Positions 2,308 to 37,144 of a stretch of DNA of 37,145 nt are shown piece after piece. The translations under genes and the position numbers were made by a program. Below the pieces are notes generated by a model that did not search any database, had not been told where the DNA came from, and saw nothing but the letters and a program-made list of their open reading frames with translations. Every line of letters begins with the position of its first letter. Positions within the stretch are counted from its first letter, which is position 1. Source of the DNA: a virus (taxonomy: Duplodnaviria > Caudoviricetes); IMG/VR virus record IMGVR_UViG_3300046786_000034, positions 1-37,145 of that record. One strand, given 5' to 3'.

Positions 2308-2451
2308 ATGAAACACCACAGACACTTTCAATACCCCGAAGTCAAAAACGCCAAGCTGCACGCACGCGCAGACGCAGCCGTTGACTTTCTTGCCGCCGTT
2401 GCCATTGCCGTTGGCCTTGCAGTTCTTTTGGTCGCATGGTGGTCAACATGA
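2308..2451 (+). CDS. 47-aa single-TM membrane peptide
   Basis: Hand translation MKHHRHFQYPEVKNAKLHARADAAVDFLAAVAIAVGLAVLLVAWWST; ATGA overlap with the next gene. Confidence 0.7.
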   Translation: MKHHRHFQYPEVKNAKLHARADAAVDFLAAVAIAVGLAVLLVAWWST

Positions 2452-2603
2452 CCCAAGATGAAATCAATGCAATCCAACAACAAGTCAATTCGCTTAGAAC
2501 ACAAGCCCTTGCAATCATCATGAAGTTTTTGTGGGAAAAAGGATACGACAAAGAGATGGTTAAAAAAGCCGCTGACGCAATGATGAAAGCGAGGGAAGCA
2601 TGA
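2448..2603 (+). CDS. 51-aa hypothetical protein, MTQDEI cassette 1
   Basis: Hand translation MTQDEINAIQQQVNSLRTQALAIIMKFLWEKGYDKEMVKKAADAMMKAREA; ATGA overlaps at both ends. Confidence 0.7.
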   Translation: MTQDEINAIQQQVNSLRTQALAIIMKFLWEKGYDKEMVKKAADAMMKAREA

Positions 2604-2830
2604 CACAAGATGAAATCATTGAGATGCTGAGAGCATCATGCGACAAAGACAAGGTAGACCCTGAGCAAAATGGGTTTTGGGTAATCGTTACCGAAGAACT
2701 TGTGCGCTTTGCCAAGCTAGTAGCACAGCATGAGCGTGAGGCGTGTGCAAAGTTGATTGAAGATAAATATTACGTCATTGATGAAGACTTGGTTATTGCA
2801 GACGCAATCCGAGCAGGAGAGCACACATGA
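2600..2830 (+). CDS. Hypothetical protein, MTQDEI cassette 2
   Basis: MTQDEIIEM...FAKLVAQHEREACAK...AIRA; paralogue of the next ORF. Confidence 0.75.
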   Translation: MTQDEIIEMLRASCDKDKVDPEQNGFWVIVTEELVRFAKLVAQHEREACAKLIEDKYYVIDEDLVIADAIRAGEHT

Positions 2831-3072
2831 CACAAGATGAAATAATTGAGATGGCTAAACAGGCGGGAAAATTTAAAGATGGTATTTTTCCAGAGCCTTG
2901 GCTTCCGTTCTTTGTAGACTTTGCCAATCTAGTAGCACAACATGAGCGTGAGGAAATAGCACAGTTCATTGAGCAAACCAGACTTGGTTCATTGCCCATT
3001 GAGATTGCATTGCATTACGCAACTCTATTGGGGTCTTATGCAACAGCCATCCGAGCAAGGGGACAAGCATGA
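2827..3072 (+). CDS. Hypothetical protein, MTQDEI cassette 3
   Basis: MTQDEIIEM...FANLVAQHEREEIA...AIRARG. Confidence 0.75.
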   Translation: MTQDEIIEMAKQAGKFKDGIFPEPWLPFFVDFANLVAQHEREEIAQFIEQTRLGSLPIEIALHYATLLGSYATAIRARGQA

Positions 3073-3461
3073 CACAGACTGAAGCATTACGCCTTGCATT
3101 GGAGGCGTTTGAATACACAGGTTTGAAATGGCCTCAAGTTGAAGAAGCCATCACCGCCATTAAAGCCGCACTAGAAGCCAAGGATGAGCCTGTGGCGTGG
3201 CGCACATTTGATGGCGAAGGCGGTTATGACTACCGAACTTATGAAAACAACGAGGACTACGCCAACGATTGGGACAAGCGCAACCCAAAGCATAAAGGGT
3301 GGGTTGAGCCTCTCTACACCACCCCACCACAGCAAAAAGCGAAGGATGAGCGTGTGCAAGTGTCACCATTGCAGTTTGTTGAGATGGTGATGGAGAAGGA
3401 AGACTGCATTGGCAAACCAATAATTTGGGCTGAGTGGCCTAATAAGGAAAAGAACACATGA
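3069..3461 (+). CDS. Modular early protein with EPVAW...PLYTTPPQ segment (Eaa/Ead-like)
   Basis: EPVAW and PLYT-PP motifs are typical of mosaic accessory proteins of lambdoid early regions; ATGA coupling. Confidence 0.65.
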   Translation: MTQTEALRLALEAFEYTGLKWPQVEEAITAIKAALEAKDEPVAWRTFDGEGGYDYRTYENNEDYANDWDKRNPKHKGWVEPLYTTPPQQKAKDERVQVSPLQFVEMVMEKEDCIGKPIIWAEWPNKEKNT

Positions 3462-32697: not shown

Positions 32698-34224
32698 TTA
32701 ACTTCCCATCCATGAGGTTGTTACCACGCTTCGATCCACATAAGTGCGGCGCTGCGTGGGTTCACGCGCCTCACGATGCGCCACAGGGAAGGCAAAAGTC
32801 ACACAGATCGCGTCTGCCGCGTCGGGTGATGCCAGCCCCCTGGCTTTCATGTCCTTTTTCGACTCCAGAAAAATTGTACCCTTGGAGTCGGGCTTCATCA
32901 TAGGTGAAATTAGATCAGTTTTAAGAAACCTGTCAAGCGGTATTGAGGCCGTTTTGAGCCAATCTTTCATTTTTCCCCACATTTCAGCGCGTTTATTGCC
33001 CCACATGATAGGGTTTTTCGACTTGTTGCCAAAGTTAATGCCCTTGATTTTGTAGCGCTGCTCATTAAGCCTGTCAACAATGCCAGCACCCAGACCACCT
33101 TCGTCAATCACCACCAGTGCAGGGCTGAATTCTTCAATTGCCTCAATGATGTGGCCAACCACCGTCATGGTGTCATCACCTCGATGCCTGTCAATGCGCA
33201 CAATGTCTCTGCCTTGGCGAATCGCAATGACTGTTGCATCAGCGCCAAAGCGCGCAGGGTCAACACCAATGATGATGGGGGCTGTAATGTCCTTGTATTT
33301 GGGCCTATTCATGGCATCATCCACAATGTTGGCCGGAATAAACTGGTCGTCACCCTCAGATGGGAACATGCCATAAACCTCAACATGGGCTTGCGCACTG
33401 TCTGGGCCGTATTCGTCAATAATGCTTTGGTAAACTTGCTTGTCAGTGCCCTCAACCGTCCTGGCATCAACCACCTTGTTGCTCCAAAAGTCTCTTTTTG
33501 AGTTGAAGCACTCATAAAAGTAACCAGTGTTGCGCCGTGGATTGGAAAAAGCCAACCAAAGGCGGTTAGGCGTGTTCTCCGTGAAAAAACCAGCCGTGAC
33601 AGACCAAATTGAGTCGTCAATACCGCTGGCTTCGTCAAAAATCACCATCACACCATCGTAGTTGTGGACACCAGCGTAGGCATCTGGGTTTTCTGCTGAC
33701 CACAGGCGGCCTTCCACAGCCCAATAGCGTGTGCCTTTTTTGAGGTCTTTTTCAACCAGCTCAGTTAGCCAAGCAGCAGGGGTGATTTTGGTGGCTGCAA
33801 CCTCAAACCAGTGGCTGTTGATGCTCATGGCCAACCACTTTGTGATCTCAGCCCAAGTGACTGCACGCAGCTGGGCTTCTGAGTTGGCCGAAATAATGGT
33901 GGTCGAGCCTATGCGGGTGGATAACATCCAGATGGTGAGCCAACTGACTAAGGCTGATTTGCCAATACCACGGCCAGAAGAGACTGCGTGGCGCAAGGTT
34001 TCAAAGTCTATGCGGCCTTGCTGGCGCTTGATGTGGACTGCAATCTCGCGCAAGACCTCGCGTTGCCATTTGCGGGGGCCTTTGAAGTTTGCCAAGGGGG
34101 TGTTCTCTTGACCCCAAGGGAATGCAAACAAAACAAAGGCTTCTGGGTCGTCGGCGATTGCCGGTGTCCACAGCGTGGCCATCAACTCTTGTTCGTCTTC
34201 GGGCTTGTAGATCGTGGTTTGCAT
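32698..34224 (-). CDS. terL: Terminase large subunit
   Basis: Walker A SGRGIGKS, Walker B VIFDEASG, FSNP and nuclease motifs IGVDPARFGAD, SPDAADA. Confidence 0.93.
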   Translation of the reverse strand: MQTTIYKPEDEQELMATLWTPAIADDPEAFVLFAFPWGQENTPLANFKGPRKWQREVLREIAVHIKRQQGRIDFETLRHAVSSGRGIGKSALVSWLTIWMLSTRIGSTTIISANSEAQLRAVTWAEITKWLAMSINSHWFEVAATKITPAAWLTELVEKDLKKGTRYWAVEGRLWSAENPDAYAGVHNYDGVMVIFDEASGIDDSIWSVTAGFFTENTPNRLWLAFSNPRRNTGYFYECFNSKRDFWSNKVVDARTVEGTDKQVYQSIIDEYGPDSAQAHVEVYGMFPSEGDDQFIPANIVDDAMNRPKYKDITAPIIIGVDPARFGADATVIAIRQGRDIVRIDRHRGDDTMTVVGHIIEAIEEFSPALVVIDEGGLGAGIVDRLNEQRYKIKGINFGNKSKNPIMWGNKRAEMWGKMKDWLKTASIPLDRFLKTDLISPMMKPDSKGTIFLESKKDMKARGLASPDAADAICVTFAFPVAHREAREPTQRRTYVDRSVVTTSWMGS

Positions 34225-34340
34225 TGGGCGAATGGTAAATGATTTTTTAAAAAATAAAAATAAAAATGTTCGCGGGGCTACCGTTCCTGTTGCCCTTTCC
34301 CGCCGGCCCTCCCCCCTCCCCCTTCGCGGCTGGTGGGGCA

Positions 34341-34429
34341 TTGTCCACAGGGCGTTTTCCACAGTTGTCCACATTTGCATGTGGATAACTCAAACTGTAA
34401 TGCCTGAGTACTCAAATTTCTGTGGATAA
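34341..34429. promoter_or_regulatory. Cluster of five DnaA boxes
   Basis: TTGTCCACA 34341, TTTTCCACA 34355, TTGTCCACA 34365 on +; perfect TTATCCACA on - at 34380-34388 and 34421-34429. Confidence 0.8.
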
Positions 34430-34439
34430 CTTATAGTCA

Positions 34440-34467
34440 ACTTAACATAATGATGATTGTATTAAGT
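34440..34467 (-). other. dif-like XerC/XerD recombination site
   Basis: Minus strand ACTTAATACAA-TCATCA-TTATGTTAAGT; 11-6-11 geometry; XerD arm 10/11 identical to E. coli TTATGTTAAAT. Confidence 0.7.
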
Positions 34468-34578
34468 AGACGATGCTTTTCTTGTTGTTGGGCTTTCTTT
34501 TCGTTGCGTTTACGCAACACGCAGGCGCGTGCGCGTAACGCTACAAAATCTATGCAAAAAGCGCATAACCTTGTTGGA

Positions 34579-35094
34579 TTACGCTTCTTTGGCTTGCACA
34601 TCAACAACGCTGCTATCGTCATTCAACACGCGCTGCTTTGCCTCTTTAAGTGCATCCATCACGCTGATGCGTGTATCAGTTACAGCCACATCAATGCGAT
34701 CACCATAGGTTTTAGGCTTCAACTTACTTGCAACCCACTTGCGTGCATCGACTTGCATGCGCTTTTGTTGCACCCATGCAGACGCCATAGGGCCTTCTAA
34801 ACCGTCTGGCATCTCTTGGTCAGCCAGTTCAATGATTTCCTCTGCCAAACGGTCTGCACGGCTTTCTACGGCCTTTTCGTACATGGTTCTGAACTCTGGG
34901 CTGTTTCGCAACATAAGCATCACCAATTGGTACGACGGCATGTTTTCAGATGTCTTGAGTGCGGTACTTAAACTTTTGCCTTCTGAAATCTGTTCGCACA
35001 AGATTTGCCAACATGGATTTTCAATTCCATAAACAACAGGGCGACCGCCAGAATTCTTTTTAACCGTCAATTCAGACGCCAAGTTATCAGTCAC
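34579..35094 (-). CDS. terS: Terminase small subunit (Sf6-like)
   Basis: GTG 35094 after GAGGAG; GGRP, CEQISEGKSL, MPS, AEEIIELAD, DARKWVASKLKPKTYGD. Confidence 0.85.
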   Translation of the reverse strand: MTDNLASELTVKKNSGGRPVVYGIENPCWQILCEQISEGKSLSTALKTSENMPSYQLVMLMLRNSPEFRTMYEKAVESRADRLAEEIIELADQEMPDGLEGPMASAWVQQKRMQVDARKWVASKLKPKTYGDRIDVAVTDTRISVMDALKEAKQRVLNDDSSVVDVQAKEA

Positions 35095-35179
35095 TTGTAA
35101 ACTCCTCAAAAAAAGAAGGTACTCACACCGACTGGCGCTTTCCCAAAAACGTGTGGCAACTGCAAGGAAGCACACACGG

Positions 35180-35527: not shown

Positions 35528-35572
35528 AAAATCTCCCCAATCGCATCAAACCCCCATGCCCAAAGTACGGAT

Positions 35573-35861
35573 GTACCGAACCCTTTATGTACCGAAACCG
35601 AAAGGGTTTGTATACCCTTTCGGTACGTTTCGGTACACCAGAGGTGGGTTGCTTCGGTACATTTCGGTACGTTTCGGTACATTTCGGTACACGGTTCGGT
35701 ACATTTGGCATGTACCGATGTACCGAACTCGGTACATTTCGGTACAGTTCGGTACTTTTTGAATGTAACCAAGTTACCATTTCGGTACAGTTCGGTACAA
35801 GTGCTTGGTAACTTTGTTTCATGTCACTTGATTTGGCTCTGTTTTCGGCACAGTTCGGTAC
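35573..35861. repeat. Iteron array, putative phage replication origin
   Basis: 13 TCGGTAC copies on + and 4 on -, many at 10-bp spacing, immediately downstream of the primase-helicase gene. Confidence 0.8.
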
Positions 35862-37144
35862 ATGCCCGCATTCTCAAAAACCATGGATTTTTTGGTTAGT
35901 GCATCCAAACATTCCTTAAATCTGCGTGAATTCAGACCATGCCCTTTGGCGCTTTCACGCCATTCATCATAATCAACCATGGCCGCAAACCCTTCAATTC
36001 CATCTGCCGCCCGTTTGGCTTCAATAGACACCAAAGAATTTAATGCGATCTTTTGATTACCCGATAACACAGCACGCTTCTGGATATTCCCCATCAGGCC
36101 GCTGATGTCCACAGCCGTCAGATATGCCCCCTTGACTGGCAGCCCATGCTTGTCTTGGATGGGCAGATCCACTTGGGTGATCTGGAAGTTCTTTGGCGCT
36201 GGCATCTCTGCGTCTTTCATCTTTTTGGACTCAAACGCAATAGTCTTTGTGCCTGCATCCAACTGGCATCGGTATTCAGCATCCAGTGCGCCCTTGAGAG
36301 CCGTGCTACCCCTAGACCGATCCTTGTCTGCCACGCCTGAGTGGTGAACCACCAGCACGCAGCACTTCCATGGTTGGCGTAAATAGACATCGAGGTGCTG
36401 AATAAACGCATTCATGTCTTGGGTGCTGTTCTCATCCCCACCATGGTTTCTGGCCAAGGTGTCAATGATGATCATGGATGGCACTGTGCCTGCTTGCGCT
36501 GACAGCTCTTTGATGCTCTCTGCCACCACCGCAGCCTCTGTGGCGTCATACAGCTGCGCCGCACGGTGGCTCTTGTACAGTGGCGCCCCATCAAGGGTCT
36601 GGCCATTGCCTAGCTGCCATGCCTTGAACCGTCTGGCCAAGCCGTTGTGCCCTTCGCCTGCGATGTAAAACACCGAGCCTTGCTTGACCTCATGGCCATG
36701 CCATGGCCGTCCAGTAGCCACGCAGCAAGCAAGGTCGATGCTGACGAATGACTTACCACCGCCTGGGTCACCAAACACTTGCGCCAAGCTGTCACTTTCT
36801 ATGTAGTCGTCAACAATCCAATTGATCTCTGCCAACTCAAGGCTATCAATTCTGGAGAACTCAAACGCCAGTTTGTCACGCATCGGGCCTGCCACGCGCT
36901 CGATCTGCTCTTTGACGGCATCAAGCCCTTGCAGGCAGTGAAGGTCATTAAAGTCCGTTGGTTTGTTGTCCACCATGTCCGACTCACCAAATTGTGGGTA
37001 CACAATCTCACCAAACACCAGTGCCGCAGCCGCACGGCCTTTAGTGACTCCAGGGTTGCCCTCCGTGAACTGGTCATTGTCTGCACCGATCACGATCTTT
37101 GAGCCTGGGAACATTTCTTTGGCACTCTTGGCCACCTTGGCCAA
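35819..37144 (-). CDS. Primase-helicase, C-terminal part (Toprim end plus AAA_25/RepA-like helicase)
   Basis: TDFNDLH, Walker A GDPGGGKS, YIAGEG, Walker B IIIDTLAR, DENS..DM, VVHHSG, RGSTALKGALD. Confidence 0.9.
   Translation of the reverse strand: MAKVAKSAKEMFPGSKIVIGADNDQFTEGNPGVTKGRAAAALVFGEIVYPQFGESDMVDNKPTDFNDLHCLQGLDAVKEQIERVAGPMRDKLAFEFSRIDSLELAEINWIVDDYIESDSLAQVFGDPGGGKSFVSIDLACCVATGRPWHGHEVKQGSVFYIAGEGHNGLARRFKAWQLGNGQTLDGAPLYKSHRAAQLYDATEAAVVAESIKELSAQAGTVPSMIIIDTLARNHGGDENSTQDMNAFIQHLDVYLRQPWKCCVLVVHHSGVADKDRSRGSTALKGALDAEYRCQLDAGTKTIAFESKKMKDAEMPAPKNFQITQVDLPIQDKHGLPVKGAYLTAVDISGLMGNIQKRAVLSGNQKIALNSLVSIEAKRAADGIEGFAAMVDYDEWRESAKGHGLNSRRFKECLDALTKKSMVFENAGMYRTVPKTEPNQVT

Follow-up and report, generated by a model that had tools for sequence, protein, structure and literature searches.

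Why should a tailed phage without an integrase hold, between its two terminase genes, a recombination site of the kind used by host XerC and XerD together with a tight array of DnaA-type boxes? The locus lies in a complete virus record of 37 kb with a 127-base assembly overlap, and the window referred to below is the whole of that record, 37,145 nucleotides. Genes were assigned by scanning 56 of the 241 listed ORFs, which yielded a P22-like podophage set (portal, capsid, ejection and tail-spike proteins) and, for replication, a block encoding a primase-helicase, Sak4, SSB, a Cas4-like exonuclease, a SNF2 helicase and RusA. The samples that gave sequences carrying phages of this type are freshwater metagenomes. 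An earlier sequence-only reading of the window had described the genome as lacking integrase, resolvase and par genes, and a search of the window genome for integrase, resolvase and ParA likewise found none. The sole regulator seen among the 56 ORFs is a 71-aa Cro/YdaS-like protein. The separate iteron origin claimed by that reading is also visible, as an iteron-like cluster 1.1 kb from the gap with about 17 CGGTAC repeats in both orientations, resembling the P4 origin, and this cluster is likely the phage's own origin. The identities given to the genes on either side of the gap were confirmed by PF20901, phrog_1482 and the relatives of terL; the real terS start probably lies a few codons inside the annotated ORF. 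The premise that terS and terL are normally adjacent does not hold in this group, however, since Ralstonia phages DU_RP_II and RpY1 are also gapped there, with G and A/T tracts.

On the minus strand the gap runs from the terS stop through the palindrome, the Xer site, 10 bp, five boxes, the G-tract and the A/T tract to the terL start. The features are as follows, with box distances counted from the XerD arm.

35560..35862, no strand: repeats of TTCGGTAC resembling iterons, downstream of the primase-helicase gene
34579..35175, minus strand: terS, Sf6-like small terminase (PF20901, E 2.9e-29; phrog_1482)
34503..34518, no strand: palindrome beside terS, lineage-specific
34457..34467, minus strand: predicted XerC-binding arm ACTTAATACAA; host consensus ACTT(T/C)ATACGA, kept in viral sites
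34451..34456, minus strand: 6-bp core TCATCA; host core TGTATA, viral consensus YRWYCA
34440..34450, minus strand: predicted XerD-binding arm TTATGTTAAGT, identical to host dif
34421..34429, minus strand: DnaA-type box 1, perfect, +10 bp (a position occupied in 83 of 105 viral sites from a box-blind search)
34380..34388, minus strand: DnaA-type box 2, perfect, +51 (56 of 105 viral sites)
34365..34373, plus strand: DnaA-type box 3, inverted, +66, facing box 2 (+65/66 in 80 of 105)
34355..34363, plus strand: DnaA-type box 4, inverted, +76, the least conserved (16 of 105)
34341..34349, plus strand: DnaA-type box 5, inverted, +90 (+88 to +90 in 64 of 105)
34268..34322, minus strand: G-tract and GC-rich motif, family-wide, outside the Xer unit, likely pac/terminus signal; its C-tract in the plus-strand reading spans 34293-34322
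34236..34267, no strand: A/T tract after the G-tract, part of the same motif
32698..34224, minus strand: terL; nearest cultured relatives Ralstonia DU_RP_II (48%) and epsilon15/phiV10 (38%)

All of the gap motifs lie where the sequence-only reading had placed them, and the box cluster and the Xer score fall far outside chance as judged by approximate shuffles. The boxes at 34380 and 34421 are perfect minus-strand copies of TTATCCACA, and those at 34341, 34355 and 34365 carry one mismatch each. Eleven boxes with at most one mismatch occur in the window, five of them, including its only two perfect copies, within these 89 bp; dinucleotide shuffles (20 of the whole genome and 2000 of the gap, approximate) never placed more than two boxes in 100 bp. 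With a matrix built from 94 host dif arms, the site scores 34.3 bits, against a minimum of 24.4 and a median of 41.8 for host sites, while the next independent place in the window scores -8.2 and the best of 20 shuffles 0.4. The palindrome is present at its claimed position, but its conservation proved to be at the level of the lineage, in 14 of 26 close relatives and 0 of 8 stretches from other groups. Searches for structured RNA at the gap gave no Rfam match of weight, and the fold of the G-tract had z = +1.06. Querying cultured phages with the gap, and plasmids with the cassette, by BLAST returned chance matches alone, the method being too insensitive for a 28-bp motif.

Under the rules for Xer sites (xrs) in bioRxiv 2024.04.05.588136, the site has the full structure of an 11-bp XerC arm, a core of 6-8 bp and an 11-bp XerD arm, with the XerD arm the better conserved. 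The pattern of the phage arms occurs at no fewer than 120 genome loci (about 310 estimated), mostly in Rhodoferax, Limnohabitans, Polaromonas and other Comamonadaceae. Among the matches listed, the same arms enclose the core TGTATA at 87 of 120 loci, and the XerC arm fits the host consensus in 83 of 120. This host-type site is single-copy in 4/4 complete chromosomes, at 50.1, 51.6, 55.3 and 53.3% of the way round from dnaA, and because it is single and lies 50-55% of the circle from dnaA it is read as chromosomal dif. XerD scored above its cut-off in 5/5 host-type genomes. Since the phage arms match Comamonadaceae dif, we infer from these sequences that the phage host is a Comamonadaceae bacterium. 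In this way, Xer arms could serve as a sequence tag for predicting to which family the host of an uncultured phage belongs.

While both arms are the same in phage and host dif, the core differs. The host core is found in 0 of 105 viral sites. A C occupies core position 5 in 186 of 192 viral sites, against T in the host, the last base, A, matches dif, and the first varies between T and C. In about half of the viral sites the first core base, or the first two, agree with the host; the first base is C instead of T in 74 of the 154 sites that were assigned. This base switches between T and C inside all four phage groups described below and thus seems not to be held to a match with dif. The phage core may resemble that of psi, a likeness for which the paper searched gave no confirmation. 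E. coli-type XerD arms were also tried as candidates and were rejected, since their 67 viral matches had scattered spacings and mostly no XerC arm, only 2 of them lying within the system. In two further stretches (L640, L680), a viral Xer site of this host type lacks boxes and has no terminase marker close to it.

The boxes are coupled to the Xer site. A search blind to boxes gave 105 distinct viral sites (119 minus 14 that were cut off or duplicate sequences). In 100 of these, a DnaA-type box lies no more than 100 bp from the XerD arm, in 83 of them at exactly +10; among host dif sites the count is 2 of 92. When spacings of 8-12 bp were allowed, 106 of 111 distinct matches had 10 bp, and the five at 11 bp were without a XerC arm. 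The letters of the 10-bp spacer vary across viral sites, and such an invariant distance combined with variable letters argues for a protein positioned against XerD. Boxes lie on the XerD side in 100 of the 105 viral sites and on the XerC side in 17. One set of conservation scores for boxes 2 and 3 was set aside as partly circular. The box variants TTGTCCACA and CTATCCACA are shared with box pairs at host dnaA starts, and under either of two search patterns a pair as tight as the phage's was seen in 0 of 4 host chromosomes; a search for oriC in the host genomes did not locate it. The joint conservation of site and boxes, which the sequence-only reading had put forward as a check, is borne out by the fixed spacing in relatives and in other groups. 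Additionally, about 12 sites have a second layout, with core CGGGCR or CGGACG and one box each at -28 and +20, immediately following terS (L570, L575, L578, L579, L598, L618 and others).

Within the TerL clade of the window phage the full site is confined to close relatives, and a motif scan found the unit far outside that clade. Among 80 TerL relatives, the full site is present in 26 of the 29 at or above 89% identity, the three misses being contigs that start inside or after the site, and in 0 of the 51 below 89%, 33 of which have at least 2.9 kb upstream. Overall, the unit occurs once per genome in 10/10 near-complete carriers, which fall into four groups, A to D, with three unrelated TerL types. 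Group A is the window phage. Group B has group-A replication genes with an unrelated terL and portal, and its unit lies upstream of a small terminase-like ORF. Groups C and D have TerLs at 31% to that of A and 72% to each other, and their primases differ. A search for PF00589 was negative in 15 of 15 near-complete virus records, carriers and non-carriers alike, and in 5 of 5 further records, and ParA was found in 0 of 16 genomes. Several hundred stretches with the unit are stored in each of two collections.

Some relatives without the Xer site have related sequences in the same region. L034, L040, L045-L047, L049, L054, L064 and L066 have 7-17 TTGTCCACA/TTATSCACA repeats forming an iteron-like origin, about 570-1100 bp upstream of terL and just upstream of the G-tract. 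In L038, L042, L048, L050, L051 and L067, a lone perfect XerD arm with no recognisable XerC arm lies in the origin region, about 780-830 bp upstream of terL and upstream of terS.

The unit behaves as a block that is separate from its surroundings. In L003 and L019 the Xer site and boxes are inverted together, and their neighbours, the DNA towards terS and the G and A/T tracts, have kept their place. A terminase, primase or resolvase marker accompanied 104 of 115 sites, which divide 70 versus 34 between the two orientations. Downstream of the Xer site, 75 of 87 cases have a G/C tract and then an A/T tract; 0 of 87 have them upstream. The same motif recurs in site-less relatives and in DSL-LC05. 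It is also present between terS and terL of Ralstonia phages DU_RP_II and RpY1, in a gap where reading the sequences revealed no Xer site or box. Because it is present in phages without site or boxes, the G/C + A/T motif is a family-wide signal and not a DUE. In four phage groups the unit is on the side of the motif that faces the replication genes, and insertions of 1.3-2.1 kb lie beyond the motif and not between it and the Xer site. The motif is likely a packaging (pac/terminus) signal, and the packaging mode of the window phage would be that suggested by family likeness. The Xer site itself is not needed for packaging, since none of the 51 relatives below 89% has it and the Ralstonia phages package without it. 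The sequence-only reading had regarded the locus as a miniature oriC. A cluster of DnaA boxes is indeed there, but an unwinding element with trios beside the boxes and an IHF site are essentially lacking: the A/T tract does not flip with the boxes and exists in box-less phages, DnaA-trio-like runs occur in 2 of 71 cassettes, and the IHF consensus occurs in 1 of 71.

Contigs were used to look for genome ends. When those of four runs were placed on the window, their beginnings and ends formed no pile-ups and no junction appeared at the Xer site; gaps near 34000-34360 in X3 and X4 carry no weight as evidence. Contig starts showed no step upstream of the Xer site, remaining flat at about 5% per 200 bp. 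Downstream, 17 of 147 contigs end within 200 bp of the site, 13 of them from group C, with poly-C runs and some adapter letters. These ends were considered as virion termini and rejected, the scattered poly-C and adapter letters being read as sequencing dropout. KOPS number 0-6 per phage genome and show no skew toward the phage Xer site, a comparison of low power. The G-tract was likewise rejected as a KOPS element, since its two KOPS point away from the site and are also present in site-less relatives.

Based on these patterns, it seems probable, if by no means assured, that host XerCD acts on two copies of the phage site, with DnaA as a likely accessory factor, to close redundant injected phage DNA and to switch it between monomeric and multimeric forms in the course of lytic growth. 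XerCD and DnaA would bind the predicted site and boxes, and the altered core would allow exchange of the site with its own copy and block exchange with host dif. If the G/C + A/T motif is the packaging start, the Xer site would fall within the terminal redundancy, in parallel with loxP of P1. Redundant virion DNA with the site twice could then be closed into a circle by XerCD, and the same chemistry could convert multimers into monomer circles or the reverse. A use at the genome ends is suggested by the constant place beside the likely packaging signal. Of these two uses, end-joining on entry is slightly the likelier to be the selected one, just ahead of multimer processing during replication and packaging, though neither by itself is likelier than not. 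One option of the sequence-only reading had been Xer-mediated integration or concatemer processing tied to packaging; its processing half survives as the best reading, while its integration half is not supported, given the core mismatch and the failure to find an occupied dif or a hybrid.

DnaA is proposed as the accessory factor because E. coli-type ArgR was found in 0 of 5 host-type genomes, KOPS show no skew, the 10-bp distance is invariant and the boxes match those at dnaA starts. On the XerD side, DnaA may bridge two sites or activate XerD where FtsK is not available, a job comparable with that of PepA, ArgR or ArcA at cer and psi. A more specific proposal is made tentatively: DnaA held 10 bp from the XerD arm, together with the phased array, might synapse two sites and license FtsK-independent XerCD recombination between incoming genome ends. 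With the same reserve, this control could be shared by unrelated Comamonadaceae phages and their satellites, as a third way besides FtsK and PepA/ArgR/ArcA. Several observations stand against parts of this scheme. The Sak4, exonuclease and RusA of the window could circularise redundant ends alone. A single spacing rule is contradicted by the roughly 12 second-layout sites and by satellites with boxes on the XerC side, and an accessory array on the XerD side contrasts with known accessory sequences, which adjoin the XerC side. Moreover, the position of the unit could partly reflect co-transfer of a terS-pac module, and in permuted headful DNA the site would be present twice in some virions only.

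Several other explanations would relate the locus to a longer stay in the host. The sequence-only reading had suggested persistence as a host-paced episome, and a plasmid-like prophage or carrier state, with a dimer-resolution site and a DnaA-paced origin, is in keeping with the circular assemblies, with a non-host core as on plasmid Xer sites and with the frequent dependence of small replicons on Xer sites. This state is nonetheless unlikely, and the episome claim is not supported. ParA is found in 0 of 16 genomes, the Cro-like protein is the only regulator among the 56 window ORFs, and 401 genomes of the host family contain neither the cassette (0/401) nor a close terL prophage, the six terL matches being five at 39-42% and one 1.7-kb contig. 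The fixed place beside the packaging motif would also be left unexplained. That the site is an attP for XerC-first integration at host dif, in the style of VGJ-phi, is very unlikely, even though there is no integrase, about half of the sites share the host's first one or two core bases, and the XerD-side core of the VGJ-phi attP is likewise unlike dif (PMC5357621). The first core base is C in 74 of 154 sites and switches within groups, and integration would separate terS from terL. Prophage copies at host dif, which the sequence-only reading had proposed to look for, were not seen: none of 98 host-type dif loci, 51 of them flanked by 2 kb or more on both sides, has a phage marker next to it, and metagenome contigs gave 0 hybrids of host arm and box under a strict pattern versus about 300 cassettes. 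A phage-type core was present in 1 of the 401 host-family genomes, without boxes. Three chromosomal P4-like elements with their own integrase, one of them beside tRNA-Leu, each enclose an Xer site whose boxes are on the XerC side, and their genomes keep an intact dif on another contig, which fits a site recombining with its own copy. These elements are possibly satellites of the phages.

The remaining explanations give the boxes or arms a purpose other than recombination. It is improbable that the boxes form a DnaA sink, which the sequence-only reading had also listed, or a DnaA-dependent start-up origin, with the Xer site as a separate passenger. Four to five good boxes lie in 90 bp, no pair as tight was found in 4/4 host chromosomes with either search pattern, many phage copies would titrate DnaA, and conserved DnaA boxes have been described for the T5 terminal repeat (bioRxiv 10.1101/866236); but a sink neither requires the fixed 10-bp spacing to XerD nor predicts joint flipping. 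A start-up origin is countered by the scarcity of trio-like runs (2/71) and IHF sites (1/71), by an A/T tract independent of the boxes, and by the phage's own primase-helicase and iterons. A sink may possibly arise as a side effect. A non-recombining landing pad, at which XerD or XerCD with DnaA shields the genome end or unloads SMC-type complexes, would agree with the lone XerD arm upstream of terS in six site-less relatives and with the unloading of SMC by XerD away from dif, reported for B. subtilis and S. aureus in PMC9226527. Conservation of the XerC arm and the biased core YRWYCA, expected if strand exchange matters, makes it quite unlikely. Least plausible of all is that TerS or another phage protein binds the boxes and that their likeness to DnaA boxes is superficial. 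They adjoin terS and the likely pac, the TerS proteins of groups A, C and D belong to one family, phrog_1482, and iteron arrays in some site-less relatives are built on TTGTCCACA. However, the same boxes accompany TerS proteins 29-37% alike, the unrelated small ORF of group B and terminase-less satellites, G421 has a TerS of the same family and no boxes there, and box orientation tracks the Xer site and not terS.

The proposed XerCD recombination between phage sites, with DnaA as the accessory factor, can be compared with known systems. Like cer of ColE1 and psi of pSC101, the unit has an 11-6-11 core, presumably for host XerCD, that is unlike dif, no recombinase of its own and predicted fixed-position sites for a host DNA-binding protein beside the core. 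The accessory DNA of cer and psi spans about 200 bp next to the XerC arm, where PepA binds together with ArgR or ArcA, while chromosomal sites need FtsK. In contrast, the phage unit has a DnaA-box array on the XerD side, in a tailed phage and at a likely packaging locus. Moreover, the stably inherited plasmid that carries cer or psi has no counterpart in the genomes sampled (ParA 0/16, cassette 0/401). The IMEX phages (CTX-phi, VGJ-phi, TLC-phi, enterogokushoviruses and DJR vibriophages) also combine the lack of an integrase with a dif-like site for XerCD; all are non-tailed and found integrated at dif. The phages described here differ in being tailed, in having no integrated copy within the sampling and the strict hybrid pattern used, in a core that is seemingly not kept matched to the host and in the attached DnaA boxes. 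In phage P1, Cre/loxP near pac circularises terminally redundant DNA and resolves dimers; P1 encodes its own recombinase and is a partitioned plasmid as a prophage. The likeness lies in a tyrosine-recombinase site near a likely packaging start, and the differences in the use of a host enzyme and in the lack of Par here. In T5, the iss/terminal repeat holds precisely placed DnaA boxes in non-coding DNA near the end of a lytic genome, with a proposed function; there are eight, in pairs 3 bp apart, and the word 'Xer' occurs 0 times in the text on them (Davison, bioRxiv 10.1101/866236). Further sources were PMC12715192, PMC7062461, bioRxiv 10.1101/2024.04.05.588136 and 10.64898/2026.02.23.706985.

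The sequence-only reading knew of no description of this combination at a terminase locus, and we also found none, nor any tailed phage with an arrangement of Xer site and DnaA boxes, in the mostly open-access literature searched. Xer hijacking has so far been described in non-tailed integrating phages and in plasmids, whereas the carriers here are abundant, tailed, apparently lytic freshwater phages. The design of the unit appears to avoid the host chromosome, and boxes of the replication initiator sit where accessory sites are expected. At about 100 bp, the unit is a small testable case for a new control of XerCD, and it may explain how phages that have short redundancy and no integrase circularise or resolve their DNA.

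Several minor observations were made in the window and its relatives. Stretches of 45-61 bp are repeated at the starts of small early genes of the window (2418-3083 and 2700-2972; ATGACACAAGATGAA family). Many relatives have ORFs of 470-520 aa between the A/T tract and terL (L329:4358-5782, L332:7354-8904, L349:63-1634 and others); these match no PHROG, gave one weak ART-PolyVal match below the cut-off and likely encode virion-delivered proteins. L410 and L432 are one 68-kb contig with two cassettes 36.7 kb apart, likely a circular genome assembled twice over. The P4-like elements of Rhodoferax-type genomes (L107/L363:8503-19781, L116:3417-9978, L129:3309-8768 and L184) encode an integrase and a small regulator, with a primase-helicase in two, and are terminase-less. 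Their non-host-core Xer site lies 140-480 bp after the integrase, with a DnaA-type box about 125-135 bp upstream.
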